64,000 nt of DNA, taken from Bdellovibrionales bacterium (GTDB lineage Bacteria; Bdellovibrionota; Bdellovibrionia; Bdellovibrionales; DASUEL01). The position numbers and the translations under genes are program-made. Below, one piece after another: positions 144-10,143 of this stretch. Under the pieces are notes generated by a model. The model made no database searches, was not told the origin of the DNA, and saw only the letters and a list, made by a program, of their open reading frames with translations. Every line of letters begins with the position of its first letter. The first letter of the stretch is position 1. Where the stretch lies: assembly GCA_050250255.1 (NCBI GenBank), contig JBFWOZ010000001.1, positions 1-64,000 of the forward strand, given 5' to 3'.

Positions 144-821
144 ATGTTTGTAAAAGTCGCACACAAATCAGAAGCAGATTCTCTCTATCAAGCGGTGATT
201 GATCAGAAGCGTCCTTTACAAATTCAATTATCTAATAAAAAAATTGTAACGGCTAAAGCCATTGAGAGACTGGGACAAGATCTTAAGCTCAACATCGCCT
301 ATATCGAACAGTTTCGTGGAGACCAAGATGTGACGGTGTCTTTTTCTGTCGGAGAAGACATTTTATTTTTAAAGAGTCATATCGTGGATAAAGGAAATCA
401 TTATCTACTCAACATTGCTTCGGGACTTCATAAGCTACAGAGACGCGGAAGTTTTCGTCTGACGGTTCCTGAAAACATGGATGCCAAAATCAAATTTGAT
501 CCCATAAAAGGAACAGAATTCAAAAAGCCTTTTCACCTTTCCAATATTAGTGGGGGCGGCTTGGGAGTAGAGTTACCGCTGGCTCATCGAGATCTTTTTA
601 AGAAAGAAGATCTTGTGGAATTCCAGTTGGAATTGACAGGTGAGTTTAATAAAAAAGTCTCAGGCCGAATCAGACTCGTAGCTGACTCGAAAGAAGATCC
701 CACAAAAAAGTTTCGTTTAGGAATCCAATTCGAAGGACTCAAGAAGAACGACGAAGAAAAGCTCACGCAACTAATCACCAATCTTTATCGTCGTTTCTTT
801 CTTGCTTCGAGATTTTCTTAA
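144..821 (+). CDS. PilZ-domain flagellar brake-like protein (YcgR family)
   Basis: QRRGSFR (RxxxR) and NISGGG (D/NxSxxG) c-di-GMP-binding motifs; adjacent to flagellins. Confidence 0.85.
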   Translation: MFVKVAHKSEADSLYQAVIDQKRPLQIQLSNKKIVTAKAIERLGQDLKLNIAYIEQFRGDQDVTVSFSVGEDILFLKSHIVDKGNHYLLNIASGLHKLQRRGSFRLTVPENMDAKIKFDPIKGTEFKKPFHLSNISGGGLGVELPLAHRDLFKKEDLVEFQLELTGEFNKKVSGRIRLVADSKEDPTKKFRLGIQFEGLKKNDEEKLTQLITNLYRRFFLASRFS

Positions 822-834
822 TTTACCCGTTTGG

Positions 835-941
835 GGTTGGAGGTTTGAGGTTTATCGTTTGAGGTTCGAGGTCTAGGTTTGAGGTTTGAAAACCTTAAAC
901 GGTACCCCAAACCTCAAACGATAAACCTCAAACCTCCAACC
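835..941. repeat. palindromic element built of GAGGTTT-type heptamers (32-bp perfect inverted repeat)
   Basis: 835-866 GGTTGGAGGTTTGAGGTTTATCGTTTGAGGTT is the exact reverse complement of 910-941; related copy at 38237-38384. Confidence 0.9.
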
Positions 942-1032
942 GAAACCGTCTCATAACAAGAAACTCTCGAAGCCCTCCTAAAACCAAAATTAAAAAATTA
1001 ACAATTAATTTCAAATACTTAACGCTTTGTGC

Positions 1033-1059
1033 TAAAGTTATTGCGCTATGCGCCGAAGA
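1033..1059 (+). promoter_or_regulatory. sigma28 (FliA) promoter of flagellin 1
   Basis: TAAA-N15-GCCGAAGA vs consensus TAAA-N15-GCCGATAA; implies TSS near 1066. Confidence 0.8.
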
Positions 1060-1146
1060 GTTCCATGACGGCTGATATGTTTTGAAAATTTAATTGTGGG
1101 CGACGACTGAATCACAGTCTCTTGATGAGACTTGAGGAGGTGTCCA

Positions 1147-1980
1147 ATGCCTTTACGTATTTCAACCAACCTGTCGAGCATTTCTGCTCAACGGCACTTA
1201 TCCAAATCCCAGGAGAGAGCGGAGCATTCCCTCAAAGCACTCGCTTCGGGTTCACGTATTGTGAGCGCGGGCGACGATGCGGCTGGGTTAGCAATCAGTG
1301 AGACGCTTCGTGGGCAACTCTCTGGTTTGCGCCAATCACGCATAAATGCTGAAAACGAAGTTTCTTTGATTCAGGTCGCTGAGGGTGGGCTTAACGAACA
1401 AAACAATATCCTTATTCGTTTACTCGAATTGGGAATTCAAGCGGCGAGCGATACTGTTTCAGACCGAGAAAGAGAATATTTAGATAAAGAATTCTCAAGC
1501 TTGGTGGAAGAATTAGATCGTATTGCGCTGACAACAACCTTCGGGAACAAAGCCCTTCTTCAAGGGACAGGGGAACAATTTGAATTCCAGATTGGACCTG
1601 ATAGTGGACCCGAGAGTGTTGTGAGTTATGTGCTTGATTCTGATTCGCGTGCTGACACTTTAGGTGTTGCGGGTCTTACGGTTGTGGATCAAAGTGATGC
1701 ACGTTCGAGTCTTTCGAGTATTGATGATGCGATCGATAGAATCTCAGAAATTCGTGCGGACTTTGGTGCTTTCCAAAGCCGCTTTCATGCAGCAGCTAGT
1801 AACTTGGATATTCAATATGAGAATATCGCTGCGGCTCGTGCTCGCATCTATGATGTGGACGTAGCCCATGAAACTTCGGAGTTATCTGCTGCGCAGATCA
1901 CTCAAGAGGCAGGCATCGCGGTTCTTGCTCAAGCGAACCAAATGCCGATGAGAGCCAGTCGTCTCATTAATCTGGTATAA
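1147..1980 (+). CDS. fliC: flagellin (fla1, more divergent paralog)
   Basis: MPLRISTN...LASGSRI..AGDDAAGLAISE N-terminus, VLAQANQ C-terminus; SD GAGGAGG at 1134-1140 before ATG 1147. Confidence 0.95.
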   Translation: MPLRISTNLSSISAQRHLSKSQERAEHSLKALASGSRIVSAGDDAAGLAISETLRGQLSGLRQSRINAENEVSLIQVAEGGLNEQNNILIRLLELGIQAASDTVSDREREYLDKEFSSLVEELDRIALTTTFGNKALLQGTGEQFEFQIGPDSGPESVVSYVLDSDSRADTLGVAGLTVVDQSDARSSLSSIDDAIDRISEIRADFGAFQSRFHAAASNLDIQYENIAAARARIYDVDVAHETSELSAAQITQEAGIAVLAQANQMPMRASRLINLV

Positions 1981-1993
1981 GAAACCCATCAAG

Positions 1994-2017
1994 AGGCCCC
2001 CCAAAAGGGGCCTTTTT
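1994..2017 (+). terminator. intrinsic terminator after fla1
   Basis: AGGCCCC-ccaaaa-GGGGCCT followed by T run. Confidence 0.8.
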
Positions 2018-2130
2018 CGTGAGCTCCGTCCCCAAAACCTAGACTTTCATCTAAATATTTTTTATTTGGCGTTTTTGAATAAAAACAAGCACAAGACGCA
2101 TCGCGCCCTAACTCCAACTAGACCTTTGGC

Positions 2131-2157
2131 TAAAGTTTCCTAGACCAAGGCCGAGAA
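2131..2157 (+). promoter_or_regulatory. sigma28 promoter of flagellin 2
   Basis: TAAA-N15-GCCGAGAA; implies TSS near 2164 and a ~200-nt leader. Confidence 0.8.
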
Positions 2158-2163
2158 GTTTCA

Positions 2164-2363
2164 TGAACACGTTGGAGCATCGGGAAGTAGAAACATATCA
2201 GCCGTCACTGAAATGTTTTTTGCTGACTGATCATTAAGTCAAAAAAAGCAATTTCGCTTTTCTCTTAATCTTCCAACAGACATTTTTAACGAGCTATGAA
2301 GGCACTCGCTGTAGGGCGCGGGTTTATGACACCAAGGATTTGGAACGTCAGTTGGAGGCTACT
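2164..2363 (+). promoter_or_regulatory. structured 5' leader of fla2 (antisense segments, anti-SD, CsrA-like site)
   Basis: Hairpin AAACAT-A-TCAG-ccgtca-CTGA-A-ATGTTT at 2191-2218; anti-SD 2270-2281; CCAAGGATTTGG at 2332-2343. Confidence 0.6.
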
Positions 2364-3188
2364 ATGGGCTTAAGAATTAATACGAATATCTCTTCGATCA
2401 ATGCGCAGAGACAGTTAGGAAAGCAACAGGCAAGAGCAGAGCATGCTTTGCAAGCGTTGTCTTCAGGAAGTCGAATCGTACAAGCAGCAGATGATGCCGC
2501 TGGTCTCTCGATTTCAGAAAACATCAAAGGACAAACTCGAGGTTTAAAGGCCGCACGCGGTAACGCCTACAACGCGGTTTCTCTCGTACAAGTTTCTGAG
2601 GGTGGTTTGTCAGAAATCAATAACATCTTAATTCGTTTACGTGAATTGGGTGTACAAGCAGCCAGCGATAACATTGGTGAAGTGGAACGCGGATTCCTCA
2701 ATCAAGAAGCGGTGCAGTTAGTACAAGAAGCGGATCGTATTGCGAAAACAACTCGATTCGGTAACAGAACACTTCTTGATGGTTCTGGAGAGCAATTAGA
2801 GTTCCACGTTGGACCATACGCCGGTGACGAAAACGTGATCAGATATCAAATCACAGCCGATGCAACAGGTGAAAAACTTGGTTACAATGGCATCACTGTT
2901 GATACAAAAGACTCAGCAAGACAGACGCTTGAAGCAGTGGACGAAGCATTAACTCAATTGGGTTCTATGCGCGCTGACTTCGGTGCCGTGCAAAGTCGAT
3001 TGAATACTACAGTGTCGAACTTAGACATTCAGTACGAAAACTTAAGTGCTGCGAACTCTCGTATCCGAGATGCTGATATCGCCTTCGAATCTTCAGAGGC
3101 CGCAGCAGCGACAGTACTACAAAACGCTTCGATCGGAGTTTTGGCTCAAGCGAACTCGATCCCATCGCAAGCTTTAAAATTATTGTAA
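2364..3188 (+). CDS. fliC: flagellin (fla2)
   Basis: MGLRINTN...LSSGSRIVQAADDAAGL; NLSAANSRIRDAD; SD GGAGG before ATG 2364. Confidence 0.97.
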   Translation: MGLRINTNISSINAQRQLGKQQARAEHALQALSSGSRIVQAADDAAGLSISENIKGQTRGLKAARGNAYNAVSLVQVSEGGLSEINNILIRLRELGVQAASDNIGEVERGFLNQEAVQLVQEADRIAKTTRFGNRTLLDGSGEQLEFHVGPYAGDENVIRYQITADATGEKLGYNGITVDTKDSARQTLEAVDEALTQLGSMRADFGAVQSRLNTTVSNLDIQYENLSAANSRIRDADIAFESSEAAAATVLQNASIGVLAQANSIPSQALKLL

Positions 3189-3197
3189 TAAAAGAGG

Positions 3198-3221
3198 CTC
3201 CTGCATCAGTGCGGGAGTTTT
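3198..3221 (+). terminator. weak terminator-like hairpin after fla2
   Basis: CTCCTGCA-tcag-TGCGGGAG followed by only four T. Confidence 0.55.
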
Positions 3222-3255
3222 CAAAAGTTAGATATGAACAAGTTATAAGATAAGG

Positions 3256-3372
3256 TAGCGCAAGAGTGAGCAACTAGGAAACGTCGTCGCCCACAAACCG
3301 ATGCAACTTAGTCACTCGAATGTTACTCTTAAGCCCACCCCGGCAGTGTCAAAGCTCCGGGGTTTTTTATTT
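3256..3372 (+). ncRNA. candidate small RNA or fla2 3' UTR extension carrying anti-fla1 and anti-fla2 segments
   Basis: Stem AAGAGTGA(3262-69)/TTACTCTT(3323-30) encloses GTCGTCGCCCACAA, which is antisense to 1094-1107; ends in a +strand terminator CCCCGG..CCGGGG-TTTTTT (3338-3368); 5' end uncertain. Confidence 0.55.
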
Positions 3373-4688
3373 TATGGAGTCGCGGTCGCGGCTTTTACTG
3401 CAGCACCCGTATTTAAATAACCACCCGTTAAAACTTTTCCTTCGAGTTTCGGTGCTTTGATAGCAGTTGCTAAAATAATATCTTTTACTTGTTTCCAATT
3501 GAGCTGCGGATTGGCGCTGTACATGAGTGCAATTGTGCCAGTGACGTGAGGCGCAGCCATAGAAGTTCCTGCAAGATGCTCGTAATAGTATCTGCGTAAT
3601 TGGGAGTGTGTCGGATTATAGGTGCTGTAAATGTGAATTCCTGGTGCAGCGATATCTACAGTTGTGGCGCCTTTGCTGGAAAACCACGTGAGATTTTGTT
3701 TGTTGGAATCAAGAGCGGCGACGCTGATGATGTTTTCGTTGTTATAAGATGCGGGATAAGACGGTGTTTTATCATTATCGCTGCTACTGTTTCCAGCAGC
3801 GGTGACAACAATTGTACCCTTATTTTTTGCATATTCGATGGCATCATAAAAAGTTTGGCTGTATCCATCGCCACCCCAACTACAATTCACCGCTTTCGCA
3901 CCCATTCTTGCTGCATAGAGAACGGTTTTGATTCCATTGTCGATGGTCCCAGATCCGTCTCTATCAAGAAACTTTGTATCTATCAGTGAAACAAGGCCGC
4001 TGACTCCAGAGATTCCTGAATTGTTATCATCACCCACGGCCCCTACGGTTCCACCTACGTGTGTTCCATGGTAATGAGTATCGATTGGGTTATTGATATT
4101 TCCTTCGAAGTTCCATCCGCGAACGTCATCAATAAAACCATTTTGGTCATCATCAATTTTATTAATCGCTTTATTGTTTCCGTTAGTATCTAAACCCATT
4201 TCACCAGGATTTTTCCAAAAGTTTTTCATGAGATCGCCATGGGTCCACATGCCAGTGTCAGAAATCGCAACGGTAATGTCGCGGCTTCCTCTTGTGATTT
4301 CCCAAGCTTCTTGAACTTTGATGGCATCTAATCCCCACATTCCCGTTGATGGGTAGGGGGGAGGAAGAAATGTAGGATCAAATTCTAACTCACCCGCTCG
4401 CACAACGTAGTTGGGTTCTACGTATTCAATGAGTTGAGATAACTCTGAAGCAAGTGGAGAATTTTTTGTCACCACAAGCGGATTTTTATTGGATACCAAC
4501 ACTTGCAACTCTGGAATTTCGGATTCTACCTCTACCCCTAAGCTATTGATAAAGCTTTTAGTACTCATTGCGGACACAGTATTTTTCAGTTTGATGAGAT
4601 ATCCACGATGCTCGAGAGAAGTTGCGTGAGTATTTATTGTGAAAGTGAGAAAAAGAAAAGAAGCGGCAAGCATTCCTAATCGGTTCAT
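3372..4688 (-). CDS. secreted subtilisin-like S8 serine peptidase
   Basis: VAISDTG, HGTHVGG, AAGN, GTSMAAPHV catalytic motifs; signal peptide after ATG 4688. Confidence 0.95.
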   Translation of the reverse strand: MNRLGMLAASFLFLTFTINTHATSLEHRGYLIKLKNTVSAMSTKSFINSLGVEVESEIPELQVLVSNKNPLVVTKNSPLASELSQLIEYVEPNYVVRAGELEFDPTFLPPPYPSTGMWGLDAIKVQEAWEITRGSRDITVAISDTGMWTHGDLMKNFWKNPGEMGLDTNGNNKAINKIDDDQNGFIDDVRGWNFEGNINNPIDTHYHGTHVGGTVGAVGDDNNSGISGVSGLVSLIDTKFLDRDGSGTIDNGIKTVLYAARMGAKAVNCSWGGDGYSQTFYDAIEYAKNKGTIVVTAAGNSSSDNDKTPSYPASYNNENIISVAALDSNKQNLTWFSSKGATTVDIAAPGIHIYSTYNPTHSQLRRYYYEHLAGTSMAAPHVTGTIALMYSANPQLNWKQVKDIILATAIKAPKLEGKVLTGGYLNTGAAVKAATATP

Positions 4689-4857
4689 GAACCCTCCGTG
4701 GCTCTTGATTTCTTTTAAGTTTATCATTTTCAAGAGTGAGGGTTTGTAATGTTTAAAAAGTGAGCACAAGAATCAGTCTAAGGACTTGGGGTCAGTTTGA
4801 TGCTGAGATGATCGTCTAGTTTAAGCACGACGTACATCGTAAGTTTATAGGTAAATT

Positions 4858-4884
4858 TTAAGTTATCTCTTTTTGAGTCGATAA
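4858..4884 (+). promoter_or_regulatory. sigma28-like promoter of the lipoprotein/beta-barrel pair
   Basis: TTAA-N15-GTCGATAA. Confidence 0.6.
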
Positions 4885-4941
4885 GACTTTATGCAAACCC
4901 TCTCATGCGGAGAGCGTTTTAAAGCCAAGGAGCGGCTTATT

Positions 4942-5910
4942 ATGAGTTTCAGTTGGAAGAAATTATTATCCAGCATAATTGCATTGCTGTTATGTGCTTG
5001 TGGTGGGACTCCGTCCGGAGCTCTTTATTATGGAGCGCTTGGTTTTGGTAAACCCAAAATTATTATTTCCAATGCTGACGCCACAGCTCCGGTTCAACAC
5101 ACAATCACAATGTATGATGAAAACGGGACTCTTCTTAAGGTGCTTGCGGACTACACAGATCTAGCAGATCGGCCCCGTGGTTTAACCCTGTGGGGTTCCT
5201 TTAGTTTTCTCGTTCCTATCGAGGGAACAGACCGCATTGATATTGTCGATATTTTTGGGGTGAGAAACACTTGGGCTACGAATGCGCAGTTTACGGGTAA
5301 TATTTTTAAGTCCGTGAATGACTCTAGTGGTAATGTGTATGTTATTGAGACTAATACAATTGAAAGATTTCTGGCGAGTGGAGAAAGAGCTCAGCAGTCG
5401 AGTGCGACTCCTTATATCGCAGCCACACTTGGTACCTGTGTTTTGAGCACACCACGTGGTATGGCGATTGCTCCAACGACCGGTTATTTGGTCGTTTCAA
5501 ATACTGGTAATGATCGAGTGAATATTTATAATGTGAATGCAACTCCCGCAACTTGCGTGAGTTTTAACTCGGCCTCGTACACAACTGCAGATCCATTGCC
5601 AATTCTCACGCATACGAATGGTTCTATGTACATAGGAACTCAAACCGCTGACCTAATTCGAAAAGTCAGTGCAGATGGTGTAACCGTCTCGACGGCTTGG
5701 AGTACAAGTTTGACGGTTATGGGTGATCCCACAGCGATTGCAGAGCTTCCCGATACAAATATTCTTGTAGCTTCAGATCTCACGGATTCAGTAGAAAGAT
5801 TTAGCCTTGATTCGACAGGAAACACTCTTACTCGCGTAGGTAGTGGACCTTTTATTAAGAATGCTTTCACAACTGCAGTTACTGAAATTTTGGTAATACC
5901 AGGAAAATAA
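4942..5910 (+). CDS. putative lipoprotein, beta-propeller (NHL-like) repeats
   Basis: Lipobox LLCAC; repeated PRGL/PRGM/PTAI blade-like motifs; SD AAGGAG. Confidence 0.6.
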   Translation: MSFSWKKLLSSIIALLLCACGGTPSGALYYGALGFGKPKIIISNADATAPVQHTITMYDENGTLLKVLADYTDLADRPRGLTLWGSFSFLVPIEGTDRIDIVDIFGVRNTWATNAQFTGNIFKSVNDSSGNVYVIETNTIERFLASGERAQQSSATPYIAATLGTCVLSTPRGMAIAPTTGYLVVSNTGNDRVNIYNVNATPATCVSFNSASYTTADPLPILTHTNGSMYIGTQTADLIRKVSADGVTVSTAWSTSLTVMGDPTAIAELPDTNILVASDLTDSVERFSLDSTGNTLTRVGSGPFIKNAFTTAVTEILVIPGK

Positions 5911-6576
5911 ATGAAGATTTCTTTTGGGCTTTTAACATTCGTAATTATCTTTGGACTTTTCAGTTCACAGATAGCTTTGGCTCAAAAATCGTCAAAAAAA
6001 GGCAATCGAGATGATCGTGGTTTATCAGCACAAGTAGATTTGGGTTTACCAACGGTGACGATTGAAAATCCAGATTCTTCAATTGCGTACTATACGGGTA
6101 TTGGTGTCACTGGAAGAGGTATTTTACCGTTATTGGATACTAGGTACTTCTCATTCAATCTTGTAGGTAATGCAAAATACTTAGATCTTAAGAACACAGC
6201 GAGTACGGCTTCGCAAAAAGAGATCGCTAACCACATTGGTGCTGGCGGCGGTGTGAGTGTCATGCTCTGGATTTTCTTTTACGGTATCGATTACAACTAT
6301 ATGTTAGCAAGACATTACACGGTAGGTACCTTTTCTCAGGAACTTAATTACAATTATACCTCAGCAGTTACTTATTACGGAGCACAAATAGAATTTGGTC
6401 AGCTTTCACTGGGAGGTGGCGTGAGTATGAACACAGCCACAATTTCGAATGGGGCCACGGACCTCAATATGGACTCACCTTATTCAGAAAAAACGTATTT
6501 CGTTTTTGCTCGCTATTCAACGGGACTGACAGTTCCCCGAATGTTCAAAGCCCTCTTCTCAGACGGCAAAAAATAA
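5911..6576 (+). CDS. putative outer-membrane beta-barrel protein
   Basis: Signal peptide; alternating amphipathic, Gly/Tyr-rich strands; starts immediately after the upstream stop. Confidence 0.55.
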   Translation: MKISFGLLTFVIIFGLFSSQIALAQKSSKKGNRDDRGLSAQVDLGLPTVTIENPDSSIAYYTGIGVTGRGILPLLDTRYFSFNLVGNAKYLDLKNTASTASQKEIANHIGAGGGVSVMLWIFFYGIDYNYMLARHYTVGTFSQELNYNYTSAVTYYGAQIEFGQLSLGGGVSMNTATISNGATDLNMDSPYSEKTYFVFARYSTGLTVPRMFKALFSDGKK

Positions 6577-6758
6577 TTACCACAACAAAGCTTCTGCGTT
6601 CTCGACTCGACTTTGAGTTGTGCAGACCAAGCGCCACCTCGACATTCATCTCATCAAATTCAACGATCTAAGTCTGGTTTTCCCAAACCTACGTCTAGCT
6701 TTTCCTCTGCTAAAGTCTAGTTTCCCCTCAACAAAAGTCCAGATTCACTGGATCAGAC

Positions 6759-6785
6759 TTTAGTCACTCTCGACCTCGCCGAAAG
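6759..6785 (+). promoter_or_regulatory. sigma28-like promoter of flagellin 3
   Basis: TTTA-N15-GCCGAAAG; weaker -35; implies TSS near 6792. Confidence 0.55.
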
Positions 6786-6985
6786 GTTTGGTGTGAGTGC
6801 TGAGAAAACAGCAGCTGAGTGAGAGACGATCTTGACGGAGAAGCTCTCAACAAAAACTCAAATGCTGATTCAAAGTCTCCAACGTGTTTAACAAAAACTT
6901 AGCGCAGGATGCGTAGTCAAATTCGTTCTCGGAGGGGTCTGAGAGCAATGACGGAGAAAGTATTCTCTCAAATGAGGAGGATAAA

Positions 6986-7819
6986 ATGGGTTTCAGAATT
7001 ACGACGAATGTATCGTCAATCAATGCGCAGAGACACTTCGGCGCGAGTCAGAGAGAGATCACAAAAAACTTCGCACAGTTATCATCTGGTAGCCGTATTA
7101 CAAAGGCGGCAGACGATGCAGCAGGATTAGGGATTAGCGAAGGATTACGAGCTCAAATTCGTGGATACGGTCAAGCAAAGCGAAATGCTGCAGATGCCGT
7201 TTCCTTACTTCAAGTTTCTGAAGGCGGTATGGGCGAAGTGAGCAATATCCTCACTCGATTGCGTGAACTCGGTGTTCAAGCCGCTTCTGATACAGTGGGT
7301 GATCGTGAAAGAAATTTCATTGATAAAGAAGTACAGCAACTCAAAGCAGAATTACAACGTATTGCGGAATCGACCCGTTTCGGATCAACAAAACTTCTTG
7401 ATGGATCTGGTGGAGTTTTCGATTTCCAAGTGGATATTAACAATAACGAATTTCAAGATAGAATTTCTTTTAATGCCGGCGCACAAAATGTGACTACGAG
7501 CCAGTTGGGCATTGAAGGCTTAGACTATAATTCCAAAGAGGGCGCTCAAACAGCTCTTGAGACAATCGATGCGGCTCAAGTTCAAGTGAACTCGTACAGA
7601 GCAAACCTTGGTGCGATTCAAAATCGATTGTTCTCCACGCAAGAATATTTGGGAATTGCAGAAGAGAATTTGTCAGCTGCAAACTCTCGAATTCGAGATA
7701 CTGATATCGCTCAGTCAACGGCCGAGCTCACTCGCAATAACATTCTCATGCAAGCAACAACAGGTGTGTTGTCTCAAGCGAATGCGATGCCGAGCATGGC
7801 GCTTAAGTTGATTGGTTAA
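6986..7819 (+). CDS. fliC: flagellin (fla3)
   Basis: MGFRITTN...LSSGSRITKAADDAAGL; RANLGAIQNRL; SD GAGGAGG. Confidence 0.97.
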   Translation: MGFRITTNVSSINAQRHFGASQREITKNFAQLSSGSRITKAADDAAGLGISEGLRAQIRGYGQAKRNAADAVSLLQVSEGGMGEVSNILTRLRELGVQAASDTVGDRERNFIDKEVQQLKAELQRIAESTRFGSTKLLDGSGGVFDFQVDINNNEFQDRISFNAGAQNVTTSQLGIEGLDYNSKEGAQTALETIDAAQVQVNSYRANLGAIQNRLFSTQEYLGIAEENLSAANSRIRDTDIAQSTAELTRNNILMQATTGVLSQANAMPSMALKLIG

Positions 7820-7848
7820 TTTAAAAATAAGTCAAAAAAGCGTTTATA

Positions 7849-7910
7849 TAGACCAGGTACTTATCCTCCCTGGTCTAACCCAGCCCGGAGACATTGTTTC
7901 CGGGATTTTA
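7849..7910 (+). terminator. anti-SD-loop hairpin followed by terminator hairpin after fla3
   Basis: TAGACCAGG-tacttatcctc-CCTGGTCTA (7849-7877), then CCCGGAGAC-att-GTTTCCGGG-atttt. Confidence 0.65.
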
Positions 7911-7985
7911 TAGGGTTCGACTTTGGTAGAGGTTTTGCTCAAAGTATTCAGGATTTAGAGTGTTTGGCCGAAGAGATAAGCGAGT

Positions 7986-8351
7986 ATGAATATCAAATCG
8001 GTGGCTCACAACATTCTACCGCTCGAGATTACAAAGATTCGACGGAGTCAGAGCGAAAAGGCTGGGGATAGAGACCCAAACGCTCAGTCTGACGGCGGTG
8101 GCGGAGACGCAACTAAACGTCATTTATCCGAGGAAGAGATTCAAAAAGCCATTGCTCATCTCAAAGAGCTTAAGGGCGTTAAAGATAATAATTTACAAAT
8201 TCGACTCCACAAAAAAGACGGCATCACGATCGTGTTTGTTGAAGATCATTTGGGAAAAGTGATTCGACGGATTCCCGAAGCCGAGCTCTATCATCTGACC
8301 ACTCAGGATAAGAATACTGAGAAGGGTCATTTACTCAACAAAAGTTTGTAA
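7986..8351 (+). CDS. flaG: FlaG-like flagellar protein
   Basis: GKVIRRIP motif; lies between flagellin and fliD; TCAG-N15-GCCGAAGA promoter at 7948-7974. Confidence 0.75.
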   Translation: MNIKSVAHNILPLEITKIRRSQSEKAGDRDPNAQSDGGGGDATKRHLSEEEIQKAIAHLKELKGVKDNNLQIRLHKKDGITIVFVEDHLGKVIRRIPEAELYHLTTQDKNTEKGHLLNKSL

Positions 8352-8364
8352 TCAAAACAATACC

Positions 8365-8452
8365 TACAGGTTTCTAGGATGCGGGAATCCAGGAATACGG
8401 TATTCTGGAATAACTACTGAATCCCTGTGTTCCGATATCCAGAAAACCTGTA
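8365..8452. repeat. imperfect palindrome with ~8-nt GGAATCCA-like periodicity (copy 1)
   Basis: TACAGGTTTCTAGGAT...ATCCAGAAAACCTGTA; similar to 10045-10143. Confidence 0.7.
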
Positions 8453-8522
8453 TTCATATAAGACATTCCTTTTCGTTTTTCTCGAAAATAAAGTTACTTT
8501 GAGTCAAACATCCATGCCTGTG

Positions 8523-8611: not shown

Positions 8612-9115
8612 CTAATGACTATGCGTTAATCGGTGATGGCCCGCACAAAGGGTGGCAAGATTCTCAAAAGTGTCTTGCCCTCCCTTGCTTTTCGGGATCA
8701 CGTGATGGGTGTGTAGCCATTTTCTTTCTGTGCAACGTACACCTTGTGGATTTTTATATGTGCACTGACCCTGATCACGCCGTTGAACCTGTCTTAAGAC
8801 AGGTTGGTGGGCTCTATGCATCAATTTTACAGCTTTCTGTACAGGATCTTTCTTCTCTAAATAGACATCCAGCAAGGCCTCAAAAGTTTCCTCAAAGTTT
8901 ACATTTTTTTGTTGGCGCTGGGATTCTAGTTCTTGAGCACGTTTGAGTTTTAGGCTCACGACTTCAGAAAATCTAAAATTTCTTTTACATCGAAGATGTA
9001 AGTACACGCGATGCTCATCGACTTGTTGAAGAATATCGATTAGATCACTCTCGGACTTGCGAAATCGTCCAGCTACTTCGAGAGCTTTTTCGTGAATTTG
9101 CATATGTTTTGTCAT
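8612..9115 (-). CDS. HNH endonuclease, probably internally deleted
   Basis: RDQGQC..C..LHTHHVIPKSKGG..ENLATLCAGHH HNH motif. Confidence 0.8.
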   Translation of the reverse strand: MTKHMQIHEKALEVAGRFRKSESDLIDILQQVDEHRVYLHLRCKRNFRFSEVVSLKLKRAQELESQRQQKNVNFEETFEALLDVYLEKKDPVQKAVKLMHRAHQPVLRQVQRRDQGQCTYKNPQGVRCTERKWLHTHHVIPKSKGGQDTFENLATLCAGHHRLTHSH

Positions 9116-9435
9116 AGGTTTCTCCTGTCAGGAAAGAGTTGGCGTGACTATAACATAGGTTTTTGAAATGCTAGTTTGTTGAAAATTAAATTGAGAAAAT
9201 GACTTTTTAAAAACGTGTTTAAACCTAAGTATTTCGCTTGAGGTCACTGTATTTCAAGGACGAATGAAAACAAAAGATTTTTATCAAACAACAAATCACA
9301 GGAAGTTTAAACGCCCCGAAATCTCGTCAAAATATATTTTCATATTTACTCAGTCAGTCGTAACATTTTGAACCAACTGTTGATCGAAAACCATTCTTAA
9401 TGGACAAATTATCTTCCTCAACGTAAAAAGTTTTG

Positions 9436-10002
9436 ATGAGAAAAAATTTAAATGAATTGCCACCCAATCTCCCGTGTCCGGTTGATGACGGTAAAGCGAA
9501 CCATCTGAAGAATTTAGAAATTCCTAAAATTAAACTTCAATCTACTGAGGGAGAAAAAGTAGACCTTTCGCTAATATTTCAAGAGCCTAGCGTGTTATTC
9601 ATTTACCCTCGGGCTGGTAGCCCATTAGAGTCCAACTCGAATCCTGATCTTTGGGATGCAATTCCTGGAGCTAGAGGGTGTACTCCTCAATCATGCGGAT
9701 TTCGAGATTTGTTTCAAGAATTCAAATCTTTGGATGTAAACATTTTTGGGCTTAGTATGCAGTCTCCGCTCGTCCAAAAGGAATTTGTTGAGCGAAATCA
9801 TATTCCCTTTCCAATTCTTAGCGATTCTAGATATGAACTAACGGATAAAATGGAGTTGCCAACTTTTGAATTTGAAGGGGAGCGTCTTATTAAACGAATG
9901 GCTCTGTTCATTGAGAATGGAAAAGTACATAAGGTGTTTTATCCTGTTTTCCCCCCAGATAAAAACGCGGAAGAAGTTTTGTCCTGGCTGAGGGAGCGGT
10001 AG
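9436..10002 (+). CDS. peroxiredoxin (BCP/AhpC-TSA family)
   Basis: PGARGCTPQSCGFRD CxxxxC motif; VFYPVFPPD. Confidence 0.9.
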   Translation: MRKNLNELPPNLPCPVDDGKANHLKNLEIPKIKLQSTEGEKVDLSLIFQEPSVLFIYPRAGSPLESNSNPDLWDAIPGARGCTPQSCGFRDLFQEFKSLDVNIFGLSMQSPLVQKEFVERNHIPFPILSDSRYELTDKMELPTFEFEGERLIKRMALFIENGKVHKVFYPVFPPDKNAEEVLSWLRER

Positions 10003-10044: not shown

Positions 10045-10143
10045 TACCGGTTTTCTAGGATACCGGAATCCAAGAACACGGTTATCCGGTAGTTATTCGG
10101 GATAACATGTATCCCTAGATTCCTGTATCCCCGAAACCCAGTA
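10045..10143. repeat. imperfect palindrome with ~8-nt periodicity (copy 2)
   Basis: GGTTTTCTAGGATACCGGAATCCAAGAACACGGT resembles 8369-8401 GGTTTCTAGGATGCGGGAATCCAGGAATACGGT. Confidence 0.7.

Follow-up and report, generated by a model that had tools for sequence, protein, structure and literature searches.

A conserved, terminator-ended RNA tail of the flagellin gene fla2 was identified in a Bdellovibrionales bacterium; this tail is likely released as a small RNA (sRNA), and on balance it likely activates the paralogous flagellin gene fla1 and represses fla2 through the fla2 start codon. Two complementarities, conservation of the element, compensatory changes and its occurrence as a single copy behind fla2 came from sequence comparison, and folding predicted that the pairing loop is exposed and that its target is the arm locking the fla1 ribosome-binding site (RBS), i.e., an anti-RBS arm. 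In addition, the tail of a homolog is expressed in the attack phase, as reported in PMC3627812.

Genomic context of the flagellin genes

The window, i.e., the whole 64,000-nt stretch of DNA that was analyzed, is the start of a contig from a 3.09-Mb genome that is 99% complete and contains six flagellin genes. Three of these are located on the + strand of the window: fla1 (277 aa, 1147-1980), fla2 (274 aa, 2364-3188) and fla3 (277 aa, 6986-7819). Behind fla3 come flaG and, at a greater distance, fliD. In flagellin trees built with FastTree, fla1, fla2 and fla3 formed separate groups. Length, synteny and flanking motifs point to fla2 as the ortholog of B. bacteriovorus fliC1 (Bd0604), and fla3 would correspond to fliC2 (Bd0606). 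Each gene is preceded on the + strand by a sigma28 (FliA)-type promoter, at 1033-1059 for fla1 (TAAAGT-N13-GCCGAAGA), 2131-2157 for fla2 and 6759-6785 for fla3. The fla1 promoter matches the sigma28 consensus given in PMC3627812, and most fla1 orthologs examined have a promoter of this type at identical spacing. Since all three genes have sigma28-type promoters, transcription alone may not set the order and ratio of their products. A terminator-like hairpin followed by a T run (1991-2017, + strand) lies behind fla1.

The comparative sample consisted of 36 genome stretches and 80 named loci. The 80 closest named relatives of fla2 were metagenome-assembled genomes, nearly all of them titled Bdellovibrionota, Bdellovibrionales or Bdellovibrio, with a few Proteobacteria, Pseudomonadota or Oligoflexia. 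In the listed loci that contain both fla1 and fla2, the two genes are on the same strand.

Other repeats are present in the window. A long inverted repeat at 828-948, whose 45-nt arms are 89% complementary, separates an upstream ORF from the fla1 promoter; sequences resembling part of it occur on three other contigs (C7, C24 and C73), which suggests a small repeated element. Its hairpin was the source of weak hits to miRNA models: a Rfam scan of window positions 800-8500 gave four matches, all of them to such models on this hairpin and with scores below gathering thresholds. Similar stretches at about 8370-8470 and 10050-10140 flank two ORFs inserted between flaG and fliD. We take the first (8612-9115, minus strand) to be HNH nuclease-like by its motif, and the second (9433-10002) is presumably peroxiredoxin-like.

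A structured and conserved RNA behind fla2

The region behind fla2 contains, in order, a hairpin just past the stop codon (3194-3221, + strand, -16.4 kcal/mol), an AU-rich linker (3222-3250), a first trailer hairpin (3251-3331) and an intrinsic terminator-like hairpin (3337-3363) with a T run that ends the RNA at 3368. The T's of the 3194-3221 hairpin belong to its 3′ arm, with no U tract behind them, so that read-through into the trailer is expected, as the sequence-only reading of this DNA had considered. The same reading had noted that the GC hairpin with its T run is on the + strand and that the adjoining gene is on the minus strand; both statements were correct, and the minus-strand neighbor is a subtilisin-like protease gene. 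The AU-rich linker, which also holds a weak TTCAAA/TATAAG match, is a candidate processing site.

Positions 3255-3372 folded with -37.2 kcal/mol (z-score of -4.19), and none of 200 shuffled sequences folded equally well. In the minimum-energy fold, a 12-nt loop of the first trailer hairpin (3287-3298) displays the seed of the pairing. The 14-mer at 3283-3296 had been placed in a stem-loop; this held for 3287-3296, which are in the loop, but not for 3283-3286, which pair with 3299-3302. Of the two stems proposed earlier, 3264-3269/3312-3317 is part of the minimum-energy fold, and the alternative, 3262-3272/3321-3330, was seen on inspection to be pairable and is equivalent to the stem that is conserved among relatives. 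No Rfam match was found over the trailer element (E-values up to 5), nor were there any matches in the three relatives' loci L131, L158 and L159 (E-values up to 1).

Most fla2 orthologs are followed by a short stem, the loop GCCCACAGAC, the motif TTAAGCCCRCCC and a terminator, in that order. The distance of this element from the fla2 stop codon is variable, with a median of 143 nt and a 5-95% range of 53-450 nt. It is present as a single copy behind fla2: a strict pattern of the trailer gave one match per genome in 35 of the 115 genomes from the order and in 2 of 286 from the rest of the phylum, compared with four matches for a reversed control pattern, and it also matched the window at 3290-3340. 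The seed was predicted to be unpaired in the folded trailer with a mean probability of 0.84, exceeding 0.7 in 60 of 74 loci. Double changes were found at all six pairs of the closing stem, which was 74.9% paired versus 42-57% when the structure was slid, a count that used a structure named from one row and thus favors named over slid structures. RNAalifold, applied to a gappy alignment of 57 of the 80 extracted trailers, recovered only the terminator stem and missed the first hairpin because of alignment gaps, and the stem was therefore counted with the named structure. A second CCCAC, a repeat of the seed, often occurs in the terminator loop (L016, L017, L036, L067, L084, L091, L096, L103, L107 and L117).

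Predicted pairing of the trailer loop with the fla1 leader

The trailer at 3283-3296, GTCGTCGCCCACAA, and the fla1 leader at 1094-1107 (+ strand) are exact reverse complements, as noted previously, and the 14-mer occurs at these two sites only in the 3.09-Mb genome. When the 184-nt trailer and the 81-nt fla1 leader were compared in 300 dinucleotide shuffles, the longest match did not exceed 11 nt (mean 6.8). Across 55 non-redundant loci, the longest perfect match between trailer and fla1 averaged 10.1 nt for cognate pairs, 7.4 nt for non-cognate pairs and 5.8 nt for shuffled sequences. A permutation test of the cognate match reached 0 of 20,000, a value that overstates significance because kin are not independent; we relied instead on swaps between sister loci. 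In 26 phylogenetically independent pairs from a 52-locus tree, the cognate partner was better in 17 swaps and worse in one, with eight ties; by duplex energy, the same 26 pairs gave 19 better, six worse and one tie. In addition, fla1 was the sole start with a seed match longer than 9 nt among 1,965 predicted starts in the genome.

Anchoring on the consensus seed was possible for 45 of the 55 loci, and in these the seed columns were 96-100% paired; many columns had double changes. Among the 10 unanchored loci, three (L027, L030 and L039) were divergent yet matched on both sides, and the other seven had no clear site or a mis-called leader. At the edges of the trailer duplex there was no excess of G-U (34) over A-C (44). 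The earlier proposal, a regulatory RNA from the + strand that is complementary to the fla1 leader, is thus supported by conservation, loop exposure and compensatory changes in independent lineages, and an expressed homolog, APsRNA4, has been published (PMC3627812). We consider it very likely that the trailer pairings are functional.

The trailer loop was kept in five of eight genomes in which no fla1-clade gene was detected (the hit scored for the loop in genome G010 lies past the terminator), and therefore fla1 is not its only reason to exist. In four of these five loop-bearing genomes, the best flagellin partner of the loop was the leader of fla2 itself. Over 76 loci, the match of the loop to fla2's own leader showed only a slight excess, 6.9 nt cognate versus 6.4 nt non-cognate. 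A search for an alternative loop target with TGTGGGCGACC in five genomes of genus g31 revealed no shared leader target: among 16 hits, five were the element itself, and the remaining 11, a number close to the 13 hits of the control, fell mostly within reading frames. As a separate observation, TGTGGG is present in 33 of 76 fla2 leaders and 2 of 68 fla3 leaders. A TGTGGG-like site near the fla2 RBS (e.g., in L132 and L161) may be a second self-target of the trailer loop, and a bulged version of this site is found in the window at 2310-2320.

Predicted pairing of the trailer with the fla2 start codon

A second pairing motif, which the sequence-only reading did not contain, was found at 3327-3337 (+ strand): TCTTAAGCCCA is the exact complement of the fla2 start region TGGGCTTAAGA (2365-2375) and is antisense to the start codon and codons 2-4. 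Columns +1 to +11 of this contact were 84-100% paired across 82 loci, with double changes at +8 and +11 and a G-U pair at +1 in 48 of the 82. Codon 2 is GGC in 85 of 95 fla2 genes and codon 3 is TTA in 80 of 95, compared with 20% and 21%, respectively, elsewhere in the same genes. The start-codon motif was also kept in genomes G038 and G010, both of which are without the trailer loop. The contact likely serves self-repression of fla2, in which the trailer would cover the start codon and block initiation.

Variants of this contact were observed. In G038 and G010 (loci L133 and L134), fla3 starts with the same GGGCTTAAGA as fla2, and the trailer motif could therefore cover the starts of both genes. 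In G022 (locus L135), the trailer motif has changed to GTTGTCACCCT, which matches codons 4-7 of the fla2 gene in that genome over 11 nt, i.e., a shifted self-contact.

Predicted contacts of the fla2 leader

The sequence-only reading likewise did not include the matches between the fla2 5′ leader and the other two flagellin genes, fla1 and fla3. The leader domain (approximately 2164-2280) is a structured RNA with compensatory changes across relatives and a homolog of B. bacteriovorus APsRNA3. Its hairpin A1 (2189-2220, + strand) contains 2191-2207, a 17-nt perfect complement of 1066-1082 (+ strand), which would be the 5′ end of the fla1 mRNA judging from its putative start. Cognate leader/fla1 matches averaged 12.8 nt versus 7.6 nt in 53 loci, and sister swaps favored the cognate partner 22 to 1; the edges of this contact had 53 G-U versus 29 A-C, which is supportive. 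The A1 loop was absent in all eight genomes without a detected fla1-clade gene and present in both genomes examined with one.

The 5′ motif A0 of the leader (AACACGTTGGAG, 2166-2177, + strand) is antisense to CTCCAACGTGTT at 6877-6888 (+ strand) in the fla3 leader. This match is 12 nt long in the window and at least 10 nt in 38 of 45 loci. A0 can also pair with the conserved closing motif of the leader domain, CTTCCAAC (2270-2277, + strand). In several lineages, a second leader loop, AGTCAC, co-changes with GTGACTG in the fla3 leader. In the window this loop is unrecognizable, and the equivalent fla3 motif, TGACGG (6833-6838, + strand, in a small hairpin, with a second copy at 6949-6954), fits the CCGTCA loop of A1 instead. 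Ten fla1 leaders (L058, L060, L069, L071, L075, L101, L108, L121, L126 and L129) have an extra hairpin with a GTGACT-like loop that complements AGTCAC of the fla2 leader, a possible third, loop-loop contact with fla1.

Predicted direction of the effect on fla1

The target of the trailer loop is predicted to partly lock the fla1 ribosome-binding region (1131-1152, + strand; SD at 1134-1140 and AUG at 1147). In 39 of 44 loci, folding predicted that the target site pairs with the RBS of fla1, and in 41 of 44 this pairing exceeded that of the best control window; the end of the target site is usually 20-75 nt upstream of the fla1 AUG. The RBS of fla1 was also the most locked of the three flagellins, with a median opening cost of 12.2 kcal/mol versus 8.4 for fla2 and 7.4 for fla3. 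When the target site was blocked, the mean opening cost fell from 11.7 to 9.2 kcal/mol over 49 loci (from 12.2 to 9.4 in the window), with a gain of more than 2 kcal/mol in just 24 of 49 loci and a better result than the best control window in just 18 of 49. Cofolding with the trailer raised RBS accessibility in 28 of 52 loci and lowered it in five, and shuffled RNA gave five increases and nine decreases in 30 cases. The window is one of the five decreases: its mean RBS accessibility falls from 0.34 to 0.26-0.28, since capture of the arm by the trailer lets a G-U-rich SD/AUG hairpin form. In the relatives' loci L097, L114 and L071 the prediction is clear-cut. These folding models indicate that trailer pairing probably activates fla1. 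Given the family-wide results and the ambiguous cofold of the window, activation is likely for the family and uncertain for this genome.

Alternative explanations

The matches could also be read at the DNA level, as inverted repeats serving as inversion sites, as a protein-binding motif seen twice, or as chance. This reading has in its favor that two repeat pairs bracket fla1 and fla1-fla2, that CsrA is present and that G-U pairs are not in excess around the trailer duplex, but we regard it as highly improbable. The same RNA matches multiple partners, among them its own start codon, the seeds are located in loops, both sides change together in a way that a fixed protein motif does not, the start contact has G-U at +1 in 48 of 82 loci, and fla1 and fla2 are on the same strand in the listed loci with both genes. 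DNA inversion and chance were rejected on the multiple partners, the loop-borne seeds, the co-changing sides and the shared strand. Repression of fla1 by the tail RNA, as FlaX acts on flaB, through a block of the standby site, formation of the SD/AUG hairpin or guided cleavage, is a more serious alternative, since SD and AUG become less accessible in the cofold of the window and the 3′-derived flagellin sRNAs FlaX and FliX are mostly repressors as described in the sources cited below. Nevertheless, it appears unlikely: in 39 of 44 loci the loop target coincides with the predicted anti-RBS arm, its end mostly lies 20-75 nt before the AUG, and RBS accessibility goes up in 28 of 52 loci and down in five.

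The origin of the RNA was also considered. The sequence-only reading had offered two possibilities, an own promoter and a 3′ extension of fla2. The proposed promoter, TTCAAA-N18-TATAAG, is present at 3220-3249 with both hexamers, and the start of APsRNA4 was assigned from transcription start site data as stated in PMC3627812; however, a promoter scan did not call the site, a sigma70-like site was found in just 7 of 84 trailers and a sigma28-like site in none of the 84. With an uncalled, unconserved promoter and no U tract behind the upstream hairpin, the element is best interpreted as the 3′-terminal part of the fla2 transcript, possibly processed, and independent transcription from this promoter is very unlikely. 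A different objection is that there may be no free sRNA at all, and that an intact fla2 mRNA clamps the fla1 leader with its 5′ and 3′ loops, its tail folding onto its own start. Such an arrangement would be compatible with fla1 activation; the two ends of the transcript are complementary to neighboring stretches of the fla1 leader (1066-1082 and 1094-1107), the trailer has no conserved promoter, and trailer length varies widely (5-95% range of 53-450 nt from the stop codon). On the other hand, the leader and trailer of B. bacteriovorus were each annotated as a discrete sRNA having its own 5′ end in the data cited from PMC3627812, and RNase E/G is present; we therefore view the intact mRNA as possible but doubtful, and a tail that acts as a released sRNA as the better-supported of these forms, with somewhat better than even chances.

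Proposed mechanism and implications

Genes for RNase E/G and CsrA are present in the genome, and neither Hfq (PF17209) nor ProQ (PF04352) was found in this 99% complete assembly, which fits long, loop-started duplexes. Several GGA motifs, which we take to be candidate CsrA sites, are located in the fla3 leader (6830-6985) and in the leaders of the flagellins on contigs C5 and C16. We propose that RNase E/G would process the tail in the AU-rich linker, and that the trailer loop would then pair with 1094-1107, acting without a chaperone, and pull off the arm that locks the fla1 RBS. As a result fla1 would be activated, although the sign of each effect is a prediction, and the tail RNA would help to determine in which order or ratio the flagellins are made. 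A second arm of this system would be the 5′ leader of fla2, through its matches to the 5′ end of fla1 and to the leader of fla3.

In a broader and more tentative model, for which we see somewhat less than an even chance, the whole fla2/fliC1 transcript would be an RNA switchboard free of Hfq and ProQ. Its leader would bind the start of the fla1 mRNA and two positions within the fla3 leader. Its tail would serve as a natural toehold switch, opening fla1 for translation and closing the fla2 start codon. Jointly, the contacts would determine when each flagellin is made and thereby produce the ordered blocks of the tapered Bdellovibrio filament. Such blocks, composed of several flagellins, are described for the Bdellovibrio filament in PMC2791853; the mutants reported there do not test these RNAs. 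The contacts described here offer base-resolved candidates for control of flagellin order and ratio, and assign a predicted function to APsRNA3 and APsRNA4, orphan sRNAs known since 2013.

Comparison with known RNAs

We found no published account of these flagellin RNA pairings in the literature searched, in which subscription journals were thinly covered. By position and shared motif, the window trailer is a homolog of B. bacteriovorus APsRNA4. In strain HD100, APsRNA4 is reported at 562,984-563,081 on the + strand, behind Bd0604 (562,130-562,954, 274 aa) (PMC3627812, Karunker et al. 2013); the window trailer is likewise on the + strand, directly behind a fliC1-type flagellin of 274 aa. The APsRNA4 sequence printed there ends with GAGGGGTCGCCC / GGGTCGCCC, corresponding to the 5′ arm and the start of the trailer loop, and the near-identical trailers of L157 and L158 continue with CCCACA...TCTTAAGCCCACCC and then a terminator. 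Judged on these two close relatives, the printed sequence lies about 30 nt upstream of its table coordinates, which, at +30 to +127 from the stop codon, would span the loop and the start-codon motif.

APsRNA3 is reported at 561,854-561,981 on the + strand, with a FliA promoter and ahead of Bd0604 (PMC3627812). It carries ACGTTGG, a CAATCAC loop and CTCCAAC, as does the fla2 leader, and is without the A1 loop, like the genomes of genus g31, in which no fla1-clade gene was found. Both sRNAs are specific for the attack phase (116-fold for APsRNA3 and 191-fold for APsRNA4). The sections of PMC3627812 cited here give no target or function for them and report no homology outside B. bacteriovorus.

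Three known systems resemble the trailer in its mode of action. DsrA and RprA are anti-antisense activators of rpoS that pair with the upstream arm of an RBS-hiding stem; both are Hfq-dependent and separately transcribed. The trailer has no relation to them in sequence or context, and Hfq was not found in the genome of the window. FliX of Escherichia coli, which depends on sigma28 and originates from the 3′ end of fliC, reduces the mRNA of its own flagellin and pairs within coding sequences in a single-flagellin organism, as described in PMC10578931. In contrast, the self-contact of the fla2 trailer covers the start codon, and its main trans target is the leader of a paralog.

The third system is FlaX of Vibrio cholerae, a flagellin 3′-UTR RNA that pairs with the 5′ UTRs of paralogs and with its own gene and changes filament composition (PMC11879080). 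As described in that source, FlaX is bound by ProQ and processed by RNase E; it represses flaB at three SD-like sites, and flaD is induced. The fla2 trailer differs in that neither ProQ nor Hfq was found in its genome, in that it would form one long, loop-started duplex on a predicted anti-RBS arm upstream of the SD, and in that the 5′ leader of the same transcript bears further antisense loops. Compared by description, the trailer works like FlaX and is probably not a member of its family. The findings suggest that 3′-UTR control among paralogous flagellins arose independently of Vibrio FlaX and without the usual RNA chaperones, and in this bacterial group it probably includes an activating arm.
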